Of a stretch of DNA of 30,628 bases, positions 1 through 7,030 are shown piece by piece (positions within the stretch are counted from its first letter, which is position 1; each line of letters begins with the position of its first letter). A program made the position numbers and the translations under genes. The stretch lies in contig DASXTZ010000018.1 of assembly GCA_036505135.1 (NCBI GenBank), positions 1 to 30,628 on the forward strand, written 5' to 3'. The stretch is from Ignavibacteria bacterium (GTDB lineage: Bacteria; Bacteroidota; Ignavibacteria; Tepidaquicellales; OLB5). The notes beneath the pieces were generated by a model that was given only the letters and a program-made list of their open reading frames with translations, was not told the origin of the DNA and did no database searches.

Positions 1-99
1 ATCAAGATAAAACTTCTCACCCGTTTTTAAGTTCGGGAAGTTATTATAAACAGCATCATAAAATCTGGTTACTGTTTCGTTATAATAATATTCGTTCAT
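1..99 (-). CDS. N-terminal fragment of a gene running off the window, possibly a class I SAM-dependent methyltransferase
   Basis: Not in the ORF track. ATG at 97-99, open for 33 codons to the window edge: MNEYYYNETVTRFYDAVYNNFPNLKTGEKFYLD. The RFYDxxY...FYL pattern resembles methyltransferase N-termini, but no SAM-binding motif lies inside the window. Confidence 0.45.
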   Translation of the reverse strand, partial: MNEYYYNETVTRFYDAVYNNFPNLKTGEKFYLD

Positions 100-115
100 T
101 TTTTGTCCTTTCAGC

Positions 116-144
116 TGCGAGGAGCGAAGCCGTGAAGCAGCCTC
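116..144 (+). repeat. REP-like element, family B (TTGCGA-core-GAAGCAATC)
   Basis: TGCGAGGAGCGAAGCCGTGAAGCAGCCTC, next to the ABC stop codon; similar to 13407-13430 and 13450-13480. Confidence 0.7.
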
Positions 145-145
145 A

Positions 146-2002
146 TTAAAGCGGGATTGCTTCACTTACTCTTCCAATTTTTTCTTCTATTGCTTCTTTT
201 TCCCTTTGTGCGCGAAGCTGCCTTGTATATAAATTGTAATATATTCCTTTTGCTTTCATCAGTTCATAATGATTGCCATCTTCAAGTATCTTTCCCTTTT
301 TTATCACAAGAATTCTATCGCAATGCTTTATTGTGGATAGCCTGTGTGCAATAATAATAGATGTTCTGCCTTCCATTATTCCGACTATGCCGTGCTGGAT
401 CCGCGCTTCAGTTAAGGTATCAACCGATGAAGTAGCCTCGTCCATTATAAATATTCGGGGATCAGCAAGGATAGCGCGGGCAAACGAAACAAGCTGTTTT
501 TCACCCATTGAAAGATTTTCGCCGCCTTCGCCTACCTGTTCATCAAGTCTTGTTATGAAATCATCCGCCCCGGCTATTTTTAAGGCATTTATTACTTCCA
601 TATCCTCTGCCTCTTCCCTGCCATATTTAATATTTTCCTTAACAGTACCTGAAAACAAATGCGGAGTCTGCAGCACAACACCCAGCTGGCTCCTTAAGCT
701 AAACATCGTCTTATCTTTGTAATCAATTCCGTCAATTTTAATTCTTCCGCCGGTTGGTTCATAAAAACGGCAGATAAGATTAATAATTGTTGATTTACCG
801 CTTCCGGTTTCTCCAACAAGTGCAATACTCTCTCCGGCCTTAATATCCAGATTCATGTTTTCTATAACGGGCTTGCCCTGCTCATACTGAAATGATATGT
901 TTTCAAATTCTATATTCCCATCGATTCTTTCGTAATCTTCTGCGCCATATTTATCTACTATTTGAGCTTTCGTATCTACTAGTGAAAATATTCTCTCCCC
1001 TGCCGAGATGCTATTCTGTGCTTGTGAATAGAATCTTGATATATCAAGTATGGGCTCGAATATCATAGTAGCATACCCAAAAAATGCGGCAAGCGTTCCG
1101 ACCGTAATCTCGGCAGGTATTGCAACAGCCATAGAACCGCCATAATACACAACAAATGCAGCAGCAGTTGAGCCGCCGAATATTATAAGCGGCATAAAGA
1201 TTGCAGAAAAATATGCCGATTTATATGAAGAAATCCTCATTTTTTCACTTAGAATGTCGAAATCTTCACTTACCCGTTTCTCCTGGACAAGGCTTTTGTT
1301 AACCTCAACTCCGTTAATGTGCTCATTAAACCTTGCAGTAATTTCGCTGTTATATTTTCTTGCCTCTCGTGAATATTTTAATATCAGCATTCTTAATTTT
1401 ATAGATACCAGCATCAATACAGGAATAGCTGTGGTTACAATAATTGCAAGCTTCCAGTTGTAAATAAACATTACAGTTACGCAGAATATTATCATGCCAA
1501 CTCCCCAGATTATTTCTATCATGTTCCATGAGATGAGCTCTGTAACTTTTATTGTGTCTGAAGATATCCTTGAAAGCAGCCATCCAACAGCAGACCTGTC
1601 ATAAAACGAAAACGAAAGTTCCTGCAGTTTTATAAACAGCTGCTGTCTTATATCATACATTACATATTCCTGTATCCTGCCTGCAAAATTAATAAAGCCA
1701 AATACTCCTCCGGCCAGAGTTAATCCCAATCCCAGGAAAATTAATCCATAGTATATAACTGCGGTTTGGTCAACATTGTATGTTCCCGTAGTTTTGAGTG
1801 ACTCGACAGCGGGAACAATAATATTGTCGATCAGGCTTTTCCATACAAGCGGGTAAATTGCTTCAATAAGAGCAACAAGCAATACGAAGCCGGTAAAGCC
1901 CGCTACCCACTTTGGATATTTAAAGCTGTATGTTAACAGTCTCCTTAAAAAAGGATACAACGACCCCTTAGTTTTAAATTGCTTATCCTTTAATTTTGAC
2001 AT
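146..2002 (-). CDS. Heterodimeric ABC exporter subunit (TMD-NBD), chain with consensus Walker B and degenerate signature (TM288/BmrD-like)
   Basis: N-terminal TM helices; Walker A GETGSGKST; degenerate signature LSMGEKQ; Walker B IFIMDE; H-switch IAHR. Confidence 0.93.
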   Translation of the reverse strand: MSKLKDKQFKTKGSLYPFLRRLLTYSFKYPKWVAGFTGFVLLVALIEAIYPLVWKSLIDNIIVPAVESLKTTGTYNVDQTAVIYYGLIFLGLGLTLAGGVFGFINFAGRIQEYVMYDIRQQLFIKLQELSFSFYDRSAVGWLLSRISSDTIKVTELISWNMIEIIWGVGMIIFCVTVMFIYNWKLAIIVTTAIPVLMLVSIKLRMLILKYSREARKYNSEITARFNEHINGVEVNKSLVQEKRVSEDFDILSEKMRISSYKSAYFSAIFMPLIIFGGSTAAAFVVYYGGSMAVAIPAEITVGTLAAFFGYATMIFEPILDISRFYSQAQNSISAGERIFSLVDTKAQIVDKYGAEDYERIDGNIEFENISFQYEQGKPVIENMNLDIKAGESIALVGETGSGKSTIINLICRFYEPTGGRIKIDGIDYKDKTMFSLRSQLGVVLQTPHLFSGTVKENIKYGREEAEDMEVINALKIAGADDFITRLDEQVGEGGENLSMGEKQLVSFARAILADPRIFIMDEATSSVDTLTEARIQHGIVGIMEGRTSIIIAHRLSTIKHCDRILVIKKGKILEDGNHYELMKAKGIYYNLYTRQLRAQREKEAIEEKIGRVSEAIPL

Positions 2003-2080
2003 TCCTTTCCTTTCTCTCTTTTTTTTGTCTTTTCACTTTTCATTCTTCATGTTTTTCGTTACATTTTACATTTCAAGTGA

Positions 2081-3277
2081 TCAATCTTTATATGGATCAT
2101 ACACATCTTCTCCCGCCATTGCCACACCTATGGGTTTCAATCTGCTAAGTATCTTAATTGTATTTTGATGATAATTTAGAACCTCGTTCAAATTTTTATA
2201 CACTTCAGGTGCTTCATCTGCGCCGCCGCCGCGAAGCTCGATACCCTTTTGTTTTAATTCTTCTTTCACTCTTTTAAAATTGATCTCACCCCTTGTGACA
2301 TGTATCATTTTTCCATGCTTCCACTTTCTTTTACCGGCAGCTTTGGTTCTGGACATTACTCTTCCCGCTCCATGAACTGTTGAATACAGTGAGTTCTTCG
2401 ATTCGTCCGAATCCACACCTTCTATTATGTAAGATGTCCCGCCCATTGTTGAGCCTATAAACGACTGCTGGCCGGGGAACGCAGGCGTGCAGCCTTTCCT
2501 TACTACCCAGTATTTTCTCCCGAAGTGTTCTTCAAGCCAGGCAAAATTATGATGATTATGAACTTCAAAAATGGATTTTGCACCGAGTATTTCAAGAACT
2601 TTTTTAACCACCAGGTCGCGTCCCGCATAGGCATATTCACCCGCAAGCTTCATTGCCTGTATATAATCCTTCCCAAGCTCGCTTTTTATATCAAGCAAAG
2701 TTGGCGGCGCGTCCATACTGTTAGCATCACGGGGCTTCTCTTCAAATTTAAGTCCCTTTGCAAGTGCCAGGAAACCCATTGCCGTTTTGTGCCCGAACCC
2801 GCGTGAGCCGAAGTGTACTCCAACCCATAAAACGTCATCTTTATCTTCAAAAAGATCAACGTAGTGATTGCCGCTGCCTACAGTCCCAAGCTGCCCGCTT
2901 GCCAGCTTAGCCATATTCTTTTGCGGTTTAAAATCGGTTCCCGCTATTTCATCAATTACAGGATGGTCAGCAGGCTCATTGTTTACTCTGCCAATGCCAA
3001 AGCTAATTCTGCGCGCTATCTCATCCATTATTCTTTTCTTATCTATATCTTTAGCCATTATATCCGTTTTAACCGCCTTGTTGCCGCATGCAATATCGAA
3101 ACCAACACCGGATGGACTGATGTAATCTTTATAAGCAACGGCTCCGCCAATTGGCATGCTGTAGCCAACGTGGTTATCCGCACAAAGAACGGCATAATCA
3201 CCATCTGTTGAACAGCGCTCAATTTGAGCTACCGCCCTTTCGTCAACTTCCCCGAATATTTTGATCTTTGATTTCAT
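2081..3277 (-). CDS. rtcB: RtcB family RNA ligase (RNA repair)
   Basis: All RtcB catalytic motifs are present: ADNHVGYSMPIGG, VGFDIACG, GTVGSGNH, HFGSRG, HHN, RKG, HGAGRVMSR, DEAPEVYK. Confidence 0.95.
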   Translation of the reverse strand: MKSKIKIFGEVDERAVAQIERCSTDGDYAVLCADNHVGYSMPIGGAVAYKDYISPSGVGFDIACGNKAVKTDIMAKDIDKKRIMDEIARRISFGIGRVNNEPADHPVIDEIAGTDFKPQKNMAKLASGQLGTVGSGNHYVDLFEDKDDVLWVGVHFGSRGFGHKTAMGFLALAKGLKFEEKPRDANSMDAPPTLLDIKSELGKDYIQAMKLAGEYAYAGRDLVVKKVLEILGAKSIFEVHNHHNFAWLEEHFGRKYWVVRKGCTPAFPGQQSFIGSTMGGTSYIIEGVDSDESKNSLYSTVHGAGRVMSRTKAAGKRKWKHGKMIHVTRGEINFKRVKEELKQKGIELRGGGADEAPEVYKNLNEVLNYHQNTIKILSRLKPIGVAMAGEDVYDPYKD

Positions 3278-3280
3278 TAT

Positions 3281-3311
3281 TAACCCTGAACCCTTATGGG
3301 ACGAAGGTCTC
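3281..3311 (+). repeat. REP-like element, family A (CCCTGA-core-CGAAGGNTCTC)
   Basis: TAACCCTGAACCCTTATGGGACGAAGGTCTC fills most of the 39-nt ABC/rtcB spacer; arms match the reverse complement of 21395-21420. Confidence 0.7.
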
Positions 3312-3316
3312 TTTTT

Positions 3317-5221
3317 TTAATTTGCGTAAATACCTTTACTTTTCATTCCTCTTTTCAAGTTTGACGCTTCACCTTTCACATTCATTACATCATTTTCGAT
3401 TTCTTCTTCAATTGATACCTGGATATCAAATATCTTCTTATAGAACCCGTCATTGCTTATTAGCTCCTCATGCGAACCCTGTTCTATAACCTTTCCCTTA
3501 TCAAGTACTATTATTCTATCGCAATCCTGCACGGAAGTTATCCTATGAGCAATAACAATGGTGGTTTTTCCATCAGTTATATTGCGCAATGCCTTCTGAA
3601 TTTCAAATTCGGTTTCCGTATCAACCGATGAGGTTGAGTCATCAAGAACAAGAACATCCGGATCTTTCAGCAAAGTCCGAGCCAGTGTTACACGCTGTTT
3701 CTGGCCGCCTGAGAGCGTTACCCCTTTTTCCCCAACAACCGTATCGTAAGCATTGGGGAAAATATCCATAATAATATCATGAATATTGGCAACCTTAGCA
3801 GACTCAACCACCTCATCTATATGCGTATCAGGGTCTGCGTAAGCAATATTCTCCATTATCGAAGTAGAGAACAAGAATGGCTTTTGCAGGACAACTCCAA
3901 TTCTACTTCTCAGGTATCCGCGCGAAAATTCGTTAATATTTTTTCCATCTATTCTTATTTCTCCTGAGTCCGGCTGGTAGAACCTCATCAGCAAAGAAAT
4001 AATTGTTGATTTACCCGAACCTGTGGGGCCAAGCAGCGCAATCTTCTCGCCCGGATTTATCTTAAAACTAATTCCGCTTAAGACATGATTTTTTTCTTGT
4101 TCAGAATATTTGAAATACACATTATCGAATTCAATGCTTCCCGCAAGCCCTCTGCCCCTGTTACCAAAACCCGAGTAATTTTCCTGCTCTGTATTTAAAA
4201 TGGAATAAATCCTTTGTATTGCAACAGAGGTCATACCCATTTCGCTTACAAGCTGGGCTAACCTTCTCATTGGCCAGGTAACAAAAGACGCATATGAAAA
4301 GAACGCAACATATTCGCCCACAGTAATACTGTTACTTACTACAAAATAAACTCCTGCAAAGATTGAAATAGCAAGCTGAAGATAAACCATAACATCAGAG
4401 CCCGGCCAGTAAATCGAATGAAGCTTCATCAGTCTTATGCCCCATCTGCGTTTTAGCTCGTTCTGGCTTGTAAACCTGGTGATCTCATATTTTTCCTTGG
4501 CAAATGCCTTAACAACCCTGATACCGGATAGATTTTCCTGAACCAAAGCCGTCAGCTTATCCTGTTCAGCCTCATGTTTTGTCCATATTTCTCCTTCTTT
4601 TTTGAAGAAGTAAAACGAACCCAGCAAAACCAGCGGAACGGTGCCTATTGCAATCAGCGCATAAGTAGAATTTATCATCAGCATCATTATTGAAGCGCCT
4701 GTGAAAATTGAAGTCAGCCTGACAGTTTCAATGACCTGCATGTATGCAAACTTGCGGACAGTTTCTACATCACCTGTGCAGCGCTGAATAAGTTCACCCG
4801 TGGGGGTTTTACTGTAATAATCCATCGGCAAATGCTGCAGGTGCAGAAACAGCCTGTCTCGGAGCTTCTTTATGGCCTTTTCAGTTGCAGATGCGCTTAT
4901 GGCGCTTGATGAAAAACCTGTTGCTCCTCTTAGCAAAGAAATAGAAACAAACATAGCGCCTAATGATAACAATATTATCCCAGCATTTTCTATTTTGATT
5001 TGCGGCAATAAGCTGTATAAAAAGCGCGTGATAAAATCATCACCGGCAATCTGGGTATTCCCTTTTGCAACGAAGAAGGAAATAATTTTATCAACCGTTA
5101 TCTGCAGTACCCTTGGCTCAAGCATCCTGAATCCCATAGATACAACAAGCAGTATTGCCGCGCCGGAATACTGGTATTTCCACTTATCTAATATTTCAAA
5201 TAATTTGTAAAAACTCTTCAT
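3317..5221 (-). CDS. Heterodimeric ABC exporter subunit (TMD-NBD), chain with degenerate Walker B (TM287/BmrC-like)
   Basis: Walker A GPTGSGKST; consensus signature LSGGQKQR; Walker B VLVLDD (catalytic Glu replaced by Asp). Start reassigned from 5266 to ATG 5221 (MKSFYKLF) because the extra 15 codons are mostly a palindromic repeat. Confidence 0.92.
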   Translation of the reverse strand: MKSFYKLFEILDKWKYQYSGAAILLVVSMGFRMLEPRVLQITVDKIISFFVAKGNTQIAGDDFITRFLYSLLPQIKIENAGIILLSLGAMFVSISLLRGATGFSSSAISASATEKAIKKLRDRLFLHLQHLPMDYYSKTPTGELIQRCTGDVETVRKFAYMQVIETVRLTSIFTGASIMMLMINSTYALIAIGTVPLVLLGSFYFFKKEGEIWTKHEAEQDKLTALVQENLSGIRVVKAFAKEKYEITRFTSQNELKRRWGIRLMKLHSIYWPGSDVMVYLQLAISIFAGVYFVVSNSITVGEYVAFFSYASFVTWPMRRLAQLVSEMGMTSVAIQRIYSILNTEQENYSGFGNRGRGLAGSIEFDNVYFKYSEQEKNHVLSGISFKINPGEKIALLGPTGSGKSTIISLLMRFYQPDSGEIRIDGKNINEFSRGYLRSRIGVVLQKPFLFSTSIMENIAYADPDTHIDEVVESAKVANIHDIIMDIFPNAYDTVVGEKGVTLSGGQKQRVTLARTLLKDPDVLVLDDSTSSVDTETEFEIQKALRNITDGKTTIVIAHRITSVQDCDRIIVLDKGKVIEQGSHEELISNDGFYKKIFDIQVSIEEEIENDVMNVKGEASNLKRGMKSKGIYAN

Positions 5222-5229
5222 ATTTTTAA

Positions 5230-5264
5230 TTGCGAATCCTGCTTTAGCAGGATGAAGCAATCCC
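5230..5264 (+). repeat. REP-like element, family B with an 8-bp-stem hairpin core
   Basis: TTGCGA + ATCCTGCT-TT-AGCAGGAT + GAAGCAATCCC. Confidence 0.75.
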
Positions 5265-5288
5265 ATTTAATTTATTATTTTACTGCAT

Positions 5289-5323
5289 AAAAAAACCGCG
5301 AACCCTTTACGTCCGCGGTTTTT
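5289..5323 (-). terminator. Intrinsic terminator (attenuator) between the leader ORF and the ABC operon
   Basis: Minus-strand RNA AAAAACCGCGGA-CGUAAAGGG-UUCGCGGUUUUUUU: GC-rich stem followed by U7. Confidence 0.85.
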
Positions 5324-5382
5324 AAAACTTATTTGTATATAAATTGGTGTTATCTCATATACCCCCGTTTAAACCACGGACG
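5310..5382 (-). promoter_or_regulatory. Antiterminator pairing between the leader coding sequence and the terminator 5' arm
   Basis: RNA CGUCCGUGGUUU (5382-5371) is complementary to AAACCGCGGACG (5321-5310): 12 of 12 pairs including one G-U wobble. Confidence 0.75.
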
Positions 5383-5454
5383 GACTACTCCCATGACTGG
5401 AATTGTAAGAACTGTGTCAATGTGCCCGTTATATTTTATGATAGAATTGTTCAC
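5350..5454 (-). CDS. Putative 34-aa leader (attenuator) peptide MNNSIIKYNGHIDTVLTIPVMGVVRPWFKRGYMR
   Basis: Not in the ORF track. GTG start with AAGGA 7 nt upstream, 35 codons ending in TAA, placed between a clear promoter and a terminator. Confidence 0.7.
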   Translation of the reverse strand: MNNSIIKYNGHIDTVLTIPVMGVVRPWFKRGYMR

Positions 5455-5494
5455 CTTATAATCCTTTTTTATATGTCTGTGATTTAACGTTTTA

Positions 5495-5525
5495 CAAAAT
5501 TAAGAAAAAATAGCCGAAGTGTCAA
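5495..5525 (-). promoter_or_regulatory. Housekeeping promoter for the leader/ABC/rtcB transcript
   Basis: TTGACA (5525-5520), 17-nt spacer, TAATTTTG (5502-5495). Confidence 0.75.
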
Positions 5526-5580
5526 GAAGAAATTATTAATTTCTTATGAAAAAAAATATTACTGTAAACACCCAAAAAAA

Positions 5581-5691
5581 TCAAAAAAATATCTTCTTTG
5601 GATAGGTTACTTTTATATATTTCCATTTATAGTGAGATAAAACTCTAAGCGGTATAAGGATAAAAAAAAAGAATAAAGCAAATGCTTCCAT
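5581..5691 (-). CDS. Putative 36-aa small hydrophobic protein MEAFALFFFFILIPLRVLSHYKWKYIKVTYPKKIFF
   Basis: Not in the ORF track. AGGAGG 4 nt before the ATG; hydrophobic N-terminal stretch then a basic tail; candidate promoter upstream. Confidence 0.5.
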   Translation of the reverse strand: MEAFALFFFFILIPLRVLSHYKWKYIKVTYPKKIFF

Positions 5692-5722
5692 TTTTCCTCC
5701 TGATTGCTTTCCCCTTGTTGTA

Positions 5723-5750
5723 AATATAATGAAAAATGTTCTTAAGGCAA
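5723..5750 (-). promoter_or_regulatory. Candidate promoter for the 36-aa ORF
   Basis: TTGCCT, 16-nt spacer, TATATT. Confidence 0.4.
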
Positions 5751-5920
5751 AAAAAAATTGTTAATAACTTATTATTAAACTTTTTTAGAAACTAAACTAA
5801 TACTTTATAAACTTTGTGAAGCTTATAAATTTTTAATTTACTTATCCCATACCAGTGCCATAGAAAAAGGGAGTAAAAAATTATTTTATTAAACTTGCTT
5901 TGCTTTCAAATCCGAAATAG

Positions 5921-6715
5921 CTAAATATTTATTTCACCCTTAATAACTGTTACAGCCTTGCCGGAAAGGAATACGCGGTCGCCTTCAACTCTGACTCCGA
6001 CTCTCCCGCCTCTTGCAGATGCCTGGTAAGCGGTAAATTCTTTTTTGCCAAGCCTCTTCTGCCAGTATGGCCCTAAAGCGCAATGGGCAGAACCTGTAAC
6101 AGGGTCTTCCGGCACGCCTTTTTCAGGTGCAAAAAATCTTGAGACGAAGTCATACTCACCCGGATCAGCTTTAGCCGTTATAATTGTTCCCCATCCGGGA
6201 AGGTCAAGCAATAATTCAAAATCGGGCTGAACTGCGCGGACGGCCTGTTCATTTTCAAGCTCAACAACGTAATTCCACCTGGTCATGCCTACATATTTGG
6301 GGCTGACACCTCCAAGCGCTTGAATAAGTTCAACCGGGTACGATATTTCCTTTTCGGGAATTGCCGGGAAATCCATTTCAATCTCATCACCTTTTTTATA
6401 TGTAATAAGAGCGCCGCTTCGTGTTTTAAAATTAATTTGCTTATTAGTATCATGTAATCCCTGCTCCCATAAAATATGCGCACTTGCTAAAGTTGCATGG
6501 CCGCAAAGATCAACCTCGGCAGCGGGTGTGAACCAGCGAAGATCGTAAACATCATCTTCTTTTAAGACAAATGCTGTTTCAGAAAGATTCATTTCAAAGG
6601 CAATGTTCTGCATGGCGGAATCATAAATAGCTTCGTTTAATACGCAAACCGCCGCAGGATTACCGCTGAATGGCTTATCTGCGAATGCATCAACTGTATA
6701 AATTGGTAGTTTCAT
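5921..6715 (-). CDS. PhzF family isomerase/epimerase
   Basis: Motifs FSGNPAAV, EMNLSETAF, LRWFTPAAEVDLCGHATLA and EDPVTGSA. Confidence 0.92.
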   Translation of the reverse strand: MKLPIYTVDAFADKPFSGNPAAVCVLNEAIYDSAMQNIAFEMNLSETAFVLKEDDVYDLRWFTPAAEVDLCGHATLASAHILWEQGLHDTNKQINFKTRSGALITYKKGDEIEMDFPAIPEKEISYPVELIQALGGVSPKYVGMTRWNYVVELENEQAVRAVQPDFELLLDLPGWGTIITAKADPGEYDFVSRFFAPEKGVPEDPVTGSAHCALGPYWQKRLGKKEFTAYQASARGGRVGVRVEGDRVFLSGKAVTVIKGEINI

Positions 6716-6900
6716 GGTTACATCCCTGTGGGATAAGGTTCAAAGATTATAATTCAATTGTAAAAAATCAAACCCATATAAATTTCTCGGGTAAAAATAC
6801 GGGGCGTCAGTAACCAAACCAGAGGTTCCGGTGTTATATCGGAACGGGATTGAACCTTTAGTATGCAAAGCATTCCAAGAATCTCACAGAAACTAGCATC

Positions 6901-6955
6901 CCCTCCTTAGATAAGGAGGGAACATCGAAGCGAGGAGCTATAAAGGGGGTGGTTT
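6901..6955 (+). repeat. REP-like element, family C (CCCTC hairpin with GGGGTG tail)
   Basis: CCCTCCTTA-GA-TAAGGAGGG (9-bp stem), then GGGGGTGGTTT at 6945-6955. Confidence 0.7.
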
Positions 6956-6973
6956 GAAAATACCTTTATATCT

Positions 6974-7030
6974 GGATTCCCGCTCTACGAGTCTGGGACT
7001 CGAAGAGTCGTAGACCTACGCGGGAATGGC
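6974..7030 (-). repeat. REP-like element, family D (CATTCCCGC/GCGGGAATCC) containing a nested hairpin
   Basis: ATTCCCGC (6976-6983) pairs with GCGGGAAT (7020-7027); inside, TCTACGA (6984-6990) pairs with TCGTAGA (7008-7014). Confidence 0.7.

Follow-up and report, generated by a model that had tools for sequence, protein, structure and literature searches.

We analyzed a gene cluster from an Ignavibacteria bacterium in which rtcB, predicted to encode an RNA ligase, lies between the genes for the two halves of an ATP-binding cassette (ABC) exporter. The window, i.e., the whole stretch of DNA analyzed, is the entire 30,628-nt contig DASXTZ010000018.1 (C18) of assembly GCA_036505135.1 (G000), a metagenome-assembled genome (MAG) that is 80% complete. 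The cluster is encoded on the minus strand in the order ABC half 1, 39 nt, rtcB, 78 nt, ABC half 2, 46 nt, and the start of a methyltransferase gene. This order and the three spacer lengths had been given in an initial annotation made from the sequence, and the open reading frames (ORFs) and their coordinates match it to the base. Listed in the direction of transcription, the features are as follows.

5350 to 5454, minus strand: leader ORF of 34 codons with a GTG start, ending in RPWFKRGYMR; a PWF-type leader is present in related loci
5289 to 5318, minus strand: intrinsic terminator hairpin, CCGCGGAC...TTCGCGG plus a T-run, 67 nt before the ABC1 start; conserved in relatives
3317 to 5221, minus strand: ABC exporter half 1 (ABC1; transmembrane and nucleotide-binding domains), with LSGGQ and Walker B LVLDD, assigned by Pfam, motifs, and orthologue alignment
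3278 to 3316, minus strand: ABC1-rtcB spacer, 39 nt, without a terminator on the mRNA strand and with a short hairpin that is unique in the genome
2081 to 3277, minus strand: rtcB, 398 amino acids, predicted RtcB-family 3'-phosphate/5'-OH RNA ligase, assigned by Pfam and active-site alignment
2003 to 2080, minus strand: rtcB-ABC2 spacer, 78 nt, purine rich, without a terminator
146 to 2002, minus strand: ABC exporter half 2 (ABC2; transmembrane and nucleotide-binding domains), 618 codons, with LSMGE and Walker B IFIMDE
100 to 145, minus strand: ABC2-methyltransferase spacer, 46 nt, without a terminator
1 to 99, minus strand: class I S-adenosylmethionine (SAM)-dependent methyltransferase, first 33 codons, cut by the contig end; an orthologue follows ABC2 in relatives

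The ABC1 frame is open for 649 codons (5266 to 3317), and its start is probably at 5221, because homologues align only from residue 16. The truncated gene at the contig end, initially called a possible methyltransferase, is an orthologue of the class I SAM-dependent enzyme encoded downstream of ABC2 in relatives, where a gene for an RsgA-type GTPase comes next. No terminator-like site was found on the minus strand in any of the three spacers, in agreement with the earlier observation that the genes are not separated by intrinsic terminators; in the region as a whole there were 5 such sites, against a shuffle expectation of 4.7. Promoter-like sites occurred at chance level as well, with 18 found versus 16.7 expected.

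Both outer proteins combine the Pfam domains ABC_membrane and ABC_tran, i.e., they are full half-transporters, and NCBIfam and Pfam place them among the MsbA, SmdAB, and ABCB kinds. The two are approximately 32 to 35% identical to one another. In translation, half 1 carries LSGGQ together with VLVLDDSTSS, in which Asp replaces the catalytic Glu of Walker B, while half 2 carries the degenerate signature LSMGE together with a canonical Walker B, IFIMDEATSS. Because these motifs are complementary (LSGGQ/DD and LSMGE/DE), one composite ATP site is predicted to be degenerate and the other to be of the consensus type, with half 1 contributing the Walker motifs of the degenerate site and half 2 those of the consensus site. 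The orthologues of the two halves in a related genome (G009) have the same motifs. Judged by this asymmetry in signature and Walker B, the halves appear to form a heterodimer with one degenerate ATP site of the TM287/288, BmrCD, and TmrAB type, as had been suspected when they were first described as a matched pair. The best matches among solved bacterial structures were TM288, TmrAB, BmrD, and Sav1866. TM287/288 and TmrAB, which rank among these matches with E values of 1e-100 to 1e-105, likewise pair a half that has the Walker B Asp with a half that has the degenerate signature. Their genes are adjacent, however, whereas those of the present pair are split by rtcB.

The rtcB product scores 220.6 bits against the Pfam RtcB model (PF01139; cutoff, 27) and is thereby a member of the family. 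Alignment to Pyrococcus horikoshii PH1602 (D95, C98, N202, H203, H234, H329, and H404) and to Escherichia coli RtcB shows that the active-site residues, comprising the metal ligands, the Asn, and the GMP-accepting His, are all present (D61, C64, N137, H138, H155, H243, and H302). From this alignment, rtcB is predicted to be a catalytically intact, stand-alone RNA ligase gene. Two narrower equivalog models do not accept the protein, namely, NF007153 (PRK09588; 123.6 bits versus a cutoff of 407) and TIGR03073, which describes prfH-linked RtcB (97.6 bits versus a cutoff of 271.8). It falls in a separate, well-conserved clade of RtcB proteins of 395 to 405 amino acids found in Ignavibacteriota, Bacteroidota, Armatimonadota, Chloroflexota, Actinomycetota, and other phyla. 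Homologues of the protein identify the relatives of the genome as Ignavibacteria. Members of this clade are 54 to 70% identical across at least seven phyla, yet a class-wide sample of 401 genomes yielded RtcB in only 20, a pattern that suggests frequent horizontal transfer and loss.

To our knowledge, most bacterial rtcB genes stand alone, without a known regulator. The present gene had been noted to lack its usual partners, and the absence extends to the genomes: no RtcA (PF01137), RtcR (PF06956), or archease was detected in G000 or in five further genomes that have rtcB between the halves (G005, G006, G008, G403, and G274; 87 to 98% complete), whereas in an E. coli control the same searches recovered both the RtcA and the RtcR families. 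Hence, the host operon is the sole visible regulatory input for rtcB. The Rtc system of E. coli and Salmonella (rtcR, rtcB, and rtcA) also contains an RtcB-family ligase with a full active site, and its RNA repair activity is probably switched on in response to impairment of the translation machinery (PMC5175333, PMC7790460, PMC12606134). It differs from the present case, in which neither RtcA nor the RtcR/sigma-54 activator was found, the RtcB protein is only 28% identical to that of E. coli, and control would fall to a leader-peptide attenuator that acts in cis and is part of another operon. The ribosome repair module RtcB2-PrfH offers a second parallel, being a stand-alone RtcB paralogue tied to a translation-related function (PMC9223846, PMC13166195). 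Here, however, RtcB scores below the cutoff of the prfH-linked model, and no prfH gene lies beside rtcB.

Upstream of ABC1, the terminator (a CCGCGG stem with a T-run) begins 31 nt after the end of the leader ORF. A terminator in this position was detected in all 26 loci of a first screen (25 by the strict pattern and 1 by a variant) and in three further loci, i.e., in 29 of 29 related loci checked; the stem sequence varies between loci while the hairpin is retained. A PWF-type leader ORF ending 27 to 32 nt before the terminator was present in 13 of the 26 screened loci. The occurrence of the leader/terminator element is independent of the presence of rtcB. It is not a described RNA family, as an Rfam search of positions 1 to 7000 at an E value of ≤1 returned no match. 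The attenuator that was initially proposed upstream of the operon is therefore conserved among relatives, and its layout, a short ORF and then an intrinsic terminator before the regulated genes, is that of the bmrB type. In Bacillus subtilis, bmrCD is induced by antibiotics that target protein synthesis, through a translated leader, bmrB (PMC4191407). The bmrB-bmrCD operon resembles the present one in encoding two half-transporters with one degenerate ATP site downstream of a short ORF and an intrinsic terminator (PMC4191407). On the other hand, it comes from another phylum, its leader is unrelated in sequence to the PWF-containing leader found here, the present terminator follows the leader ORF rather than lying within it, and only here does a third, unrelated gene, rtcB, separate the halves.

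The initial annotation had called for a survey of gene neighborhoods for a repeated association of RtcB with the exporter. Such an association was found: the order ABC1-rtcB-ABC2 is present in nine genomes or contigs from six GTDB genera and two families of the order. Besides G000, these are G005, G006, and G008, which represent three further genera of the family of the window (f1), G274 and G403 from a second family (f2), and the metagenome contigs L048, L144, and L145. Among 40 relatives, RtcB was found in 7, and orthologues of both halves (61 to 83% identity) were found in approximately 30. Both rtcB and the exporter pair are present in seven genera, and six of these hold rtcB in the slot between the halves. 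The spacer between ABC1 and rtcB measures 0, 11, 12, 20, 39, or 60 nt in six of the seven loci measured, and that between rtcB and ABC2 is 16 to 86 nt. The halves directly adjoin each other, with gaps of 9 to 454 nt, in 26 relatives. The flanking genes are the same with or without rtcB, with type IX secretion system (T9SS) proteins and PhzF upstream and the methyltransferase and RsgA GTPase genes downstream.

Some carriers depart from this compact layout. The ABC1-rtcB spacer of G006 (L013) is 224 nt long and folds into several hairpins. In L144, a Logan contig whose RtcB is 79% identical to that of the window, approximately 700 nt (4292 to 5001) lie between ABC1 and rtcB and include a called ORF of 229 amino acids without a family match; the operon is otherwise identical. 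We also observed that most rtcB-bearing operons are on long branches of the exporter tree (approximately 0.5 substitutions per site for G008, G006, and G403/L048, versus 0.06 to 0.36 for most others) and that the genomes bearing them tend to be smaller (2.0 to 2.9 Mb versus 3.3 to 4.8 Mb), with the exception of G403 (3.5 Mb).

The history of the arrangement can be followed to some depth. Between carrier genera, dS is saturated, and dN/dS is therefore not estimable there. In the closest carrier pair, dN/dS was 0.046 for RtcB versus 0.043 and 0.058 for the two ABC halves, indicating strong purifying selection of similar intensity on all three genes. A comparison of RtcB and exporter phylogenies had been proposed as a check of the linkage; the seven-taxon trees disagree at a single node, which has weak support, and the exporter topology is not rejected by the RtcB alignment (approximately unbiased [AU] test, P = 0.129). 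In a larger RtcB tree, the carriers with exporter context are spread over an order-level clade with other contexts branching among them, and in the exporter tree the carriers are scattered among noncarriers. Taken at face value, the sequences indicate that rtcB entered the slot before the split of several genera of uncultured Ignavibacteria and has stayed there. The simplest account would be one early insertion followed by codescent and at least four to five clean losses, plus a relocation or reacquisition in one genome (G328). We searched the gaps of the 26 operons without rtcB for remnants of the gene and found none (tblastn, E ≤ 1e-3), and the losses are therefore either clean or old.

Membership of rtcB in the exporter operon, as put forward in the initial annotation, is very likely because the genes share a strand, are separated by short spacers without terminators, and have descended together. 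It follows that the ligase is probably made under the signal of the attenuator. We lean toward the view that rtcB is an ancient, cotranscribed passenger of a BmrCD-like operon controlled by a stall-sensing attenuator. In this scenario, a single early insertion would have brought rtcB into the spacer between the two exporter cistrons, after which the genes would have been inherited jointly. The rtcB gene would be transcribed on the exporter mRNA, which would start upstream of the leader-peptide/terminator attenuator, and ligase and pump would both be made in response to one signal, most likely the slowing or stalling of ribosomes as they translate the leader. By analogy with bmrB-bmrCD, impaired translation may be what the attenuator senses, and rtcB is probably switched on together with the pump when ribosomes stall. 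Attenuator control would then take the place of the RtcR/sigma-54 control and the RtcA partner of E. coli, and some benefit might arise from coupling RNA religation to export. Such wiring makes biological sense because E. coli rtcBA responds to impaired translation: it is induced by translation-impairing agents, and cells without a functional Rtc system show impaired survival upon tetracycline challenge (PMC5175333, PMC12606134).

Other readings of the locus differ in how old the arrangement is and in what drives rtcB. The initial annotation had raised the possibility of a recent insertion, with rtcB flanked by a repetitive extragenic palindromic (REP) element on one side and a low-complexity spacer on the other. 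The GC content of the rtcB kilobase is slightly above that of its surroundings (0.43 versus 0.38 to 0.41), and the downstream spacer is indeed purine rich. However, the hairpin of the 39-nt spacer has no second copy in either the window or the genome and is not a REP element, no transposase or flanking repeat was found around rtcB, and the same arrangement recurs in six genera and two families, between which dS is saturated and the RtcB and exporter trees are not told apart by the data. These comparative data refute a recent insertion. Alternatively, rtcB might be expressed independently, from a promoter in or after ABC1, or a promoter within rtcB might drive ABC2, which would leave the ligase outside the reach of the attenuator. 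Weak sigma-70-like hexamer pairs do occur within rtcB, at 2452 to 2424 and 2125 to 2096, so that an internal ABC2 promoter is possible, and this counts against a single transcript governed by the attenuator. The 224-nt and approximately 700-nt spacers of G006 and L144 could also house promoters. In several other carriers, though, spacers of 0 to 21 nt are too short for a promoter, and promoter-like sites are no more frequent than expected by chance; we consider independent expression improbable.

A cotranscribed passenger under the exporter's attenuator, and even more so a useful one, has to be weighed against a further set of observations that speak the other way. RtcB is missing from the genomes of 25 of the 26 relatives with adjacent halves, and the remaining one, G328, has rtcB at another site. 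Outside the slot, rtcB occurs without the attenuator in four genera, and in genera g10, g15, and g26 it is present without any orthologue of the exporter pair. No attenuator was found upstream of rtcB in nonexporter contexts; because the leader/terminator element is present with or without rtcB and absent upstream of rtcB elsewhere, its distribution assigns it to the exporter. If the insertion was ancestral, at least four to five lineages have since lost rtcB from the slot. A single ancestral event would suffice to account for every occurrence, and the occurrences thus amount to one observation rather than many. Among 80 loci of the RtcB clade from other lineages, only an Ignavibacteriaceae locus has the exporter linkage. 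A search for sequencing runs that contain the window sequence returned two DNA soil metagenome runs and no RNA runs. Finally, the same slot is occupied in G009 (genus g2) by an unrelated ORF of 381 amino acids without a Pfam match (L023:3986-5131), while in its sister G001 the halves are 86 nt apart, and several genomes have inserts of 200 to 450 nt between the halves. From the G009 ORF in the position of rtcB, it follows that the intercistronic slot is permissive and a recurrent insertion site.

Much of this would be expected if rtcB were a neutral, trapped passenger that landed by chance in a permissive spacer and is coregulated with the pump without adaptive meaning. Once there, it could not be moved, except by deletion, without breaking an operon whose halves need coexpression, and this could explain its retention. 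The other DNA taken up by the slot (the G009 ORF, the long L144 insert, and the 200- to 450-nt inserts), the many clean losses, the maintenance of rtcB elsewhere with its own upstream region, and the lack of exporter linkage in other phyla all fit such a history. Against it, the arrangement has outlasted family-level divergence with rtcB under strong purifying selection, the gene is kept in the slot in all but one of the genera that also have the exporter pair, and a translation stress signal suits known Rtc biology (PMC5175333). We judge a purely neutral passenger to be rather unlikely. Each component occurs without the other, and for this reason the coupling is accessory and not obligatory. 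An adaptive coupling of rtcB to translation stress is plausible. Its fullest form would be a two-pronged tolerance operon, selected over family-level time, in which one attenuator triggers both removal of the harmful compound and religation of broken tRNA or rRNA; this we can put forward only tentatively, although we hold it slightly more probable than neutral trapping.

The components of this operon and the kind of control are known already. What is new is that an RNA ligase gene is embedded between those for the two halves of a heterodimeric exporter and, by implication, that rtcB would be controlled without RtcR; no paper in the library searched combined RtcB, an ABC transporter, and gene neighborhood. 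If the proposed wiring is correct, a lineage of Ignavibacteria came to couple translation stress with RNA repair independently of RtcR. The likely regulatory input of the ligase could then be read in cis, as the attenuator of an exporter similar to BmrCD, which is induced by antibiotics. Should the coupling prove to be adaptive, evolution would independently back a view that has so far rested on E. coli, namely, that RtcB aids survival of ribosome-targeting stress. Orthologous operons that differ only by rtcB amount to a natural comparison with and without the gene in one lineage. The locus would also be a clean example of a foreign gene fixed between two cistrons of an obligate heterodimer.

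Two candidate links between rtcB and its surroundings in other loci were dismissed. In a Vicinamibacterales MAG (L129:2904-6200), rtcB is preceded on the same strand by the gene for a single 603-amino-acid ABC ATPase protein without a recognized ABC_membrane domain, which ends approximately 240 nt before it. This was the only locus outside the Ignavibacteria that pairs an ABC protein with the RtcB clade, and we judged it coincidental as a case of exporter linkage. A residual synteny of the exporter locus with the rtcB loci of g15 and g26, via an 871-amino-acid protein, was set aside because this is a multicopy BNR/T9SS protein in a different orientation. No conserved neighbors of the RtcB clade emerged across phyla, where ORF calls in high-GC loci were polluted by antisense frames.

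Two small features lie farther upstream in the window. The sequence CTTGACACTT(T)CGG is found upstream of the leader at 5520 to 5525 (minus strand) and also in one other genus (G007, L022); it may be the -35 element of a promoter driving the operon, one that in the window would read TTGACA-17-TAATTT. An ORF of 36 codons (MEAFALFFFF...) at 5581 to 5691 (minus strand), preceded by GGAGG, is located between phzF and the exporter leader, approximately 130 nt upstream of the leader ORF.

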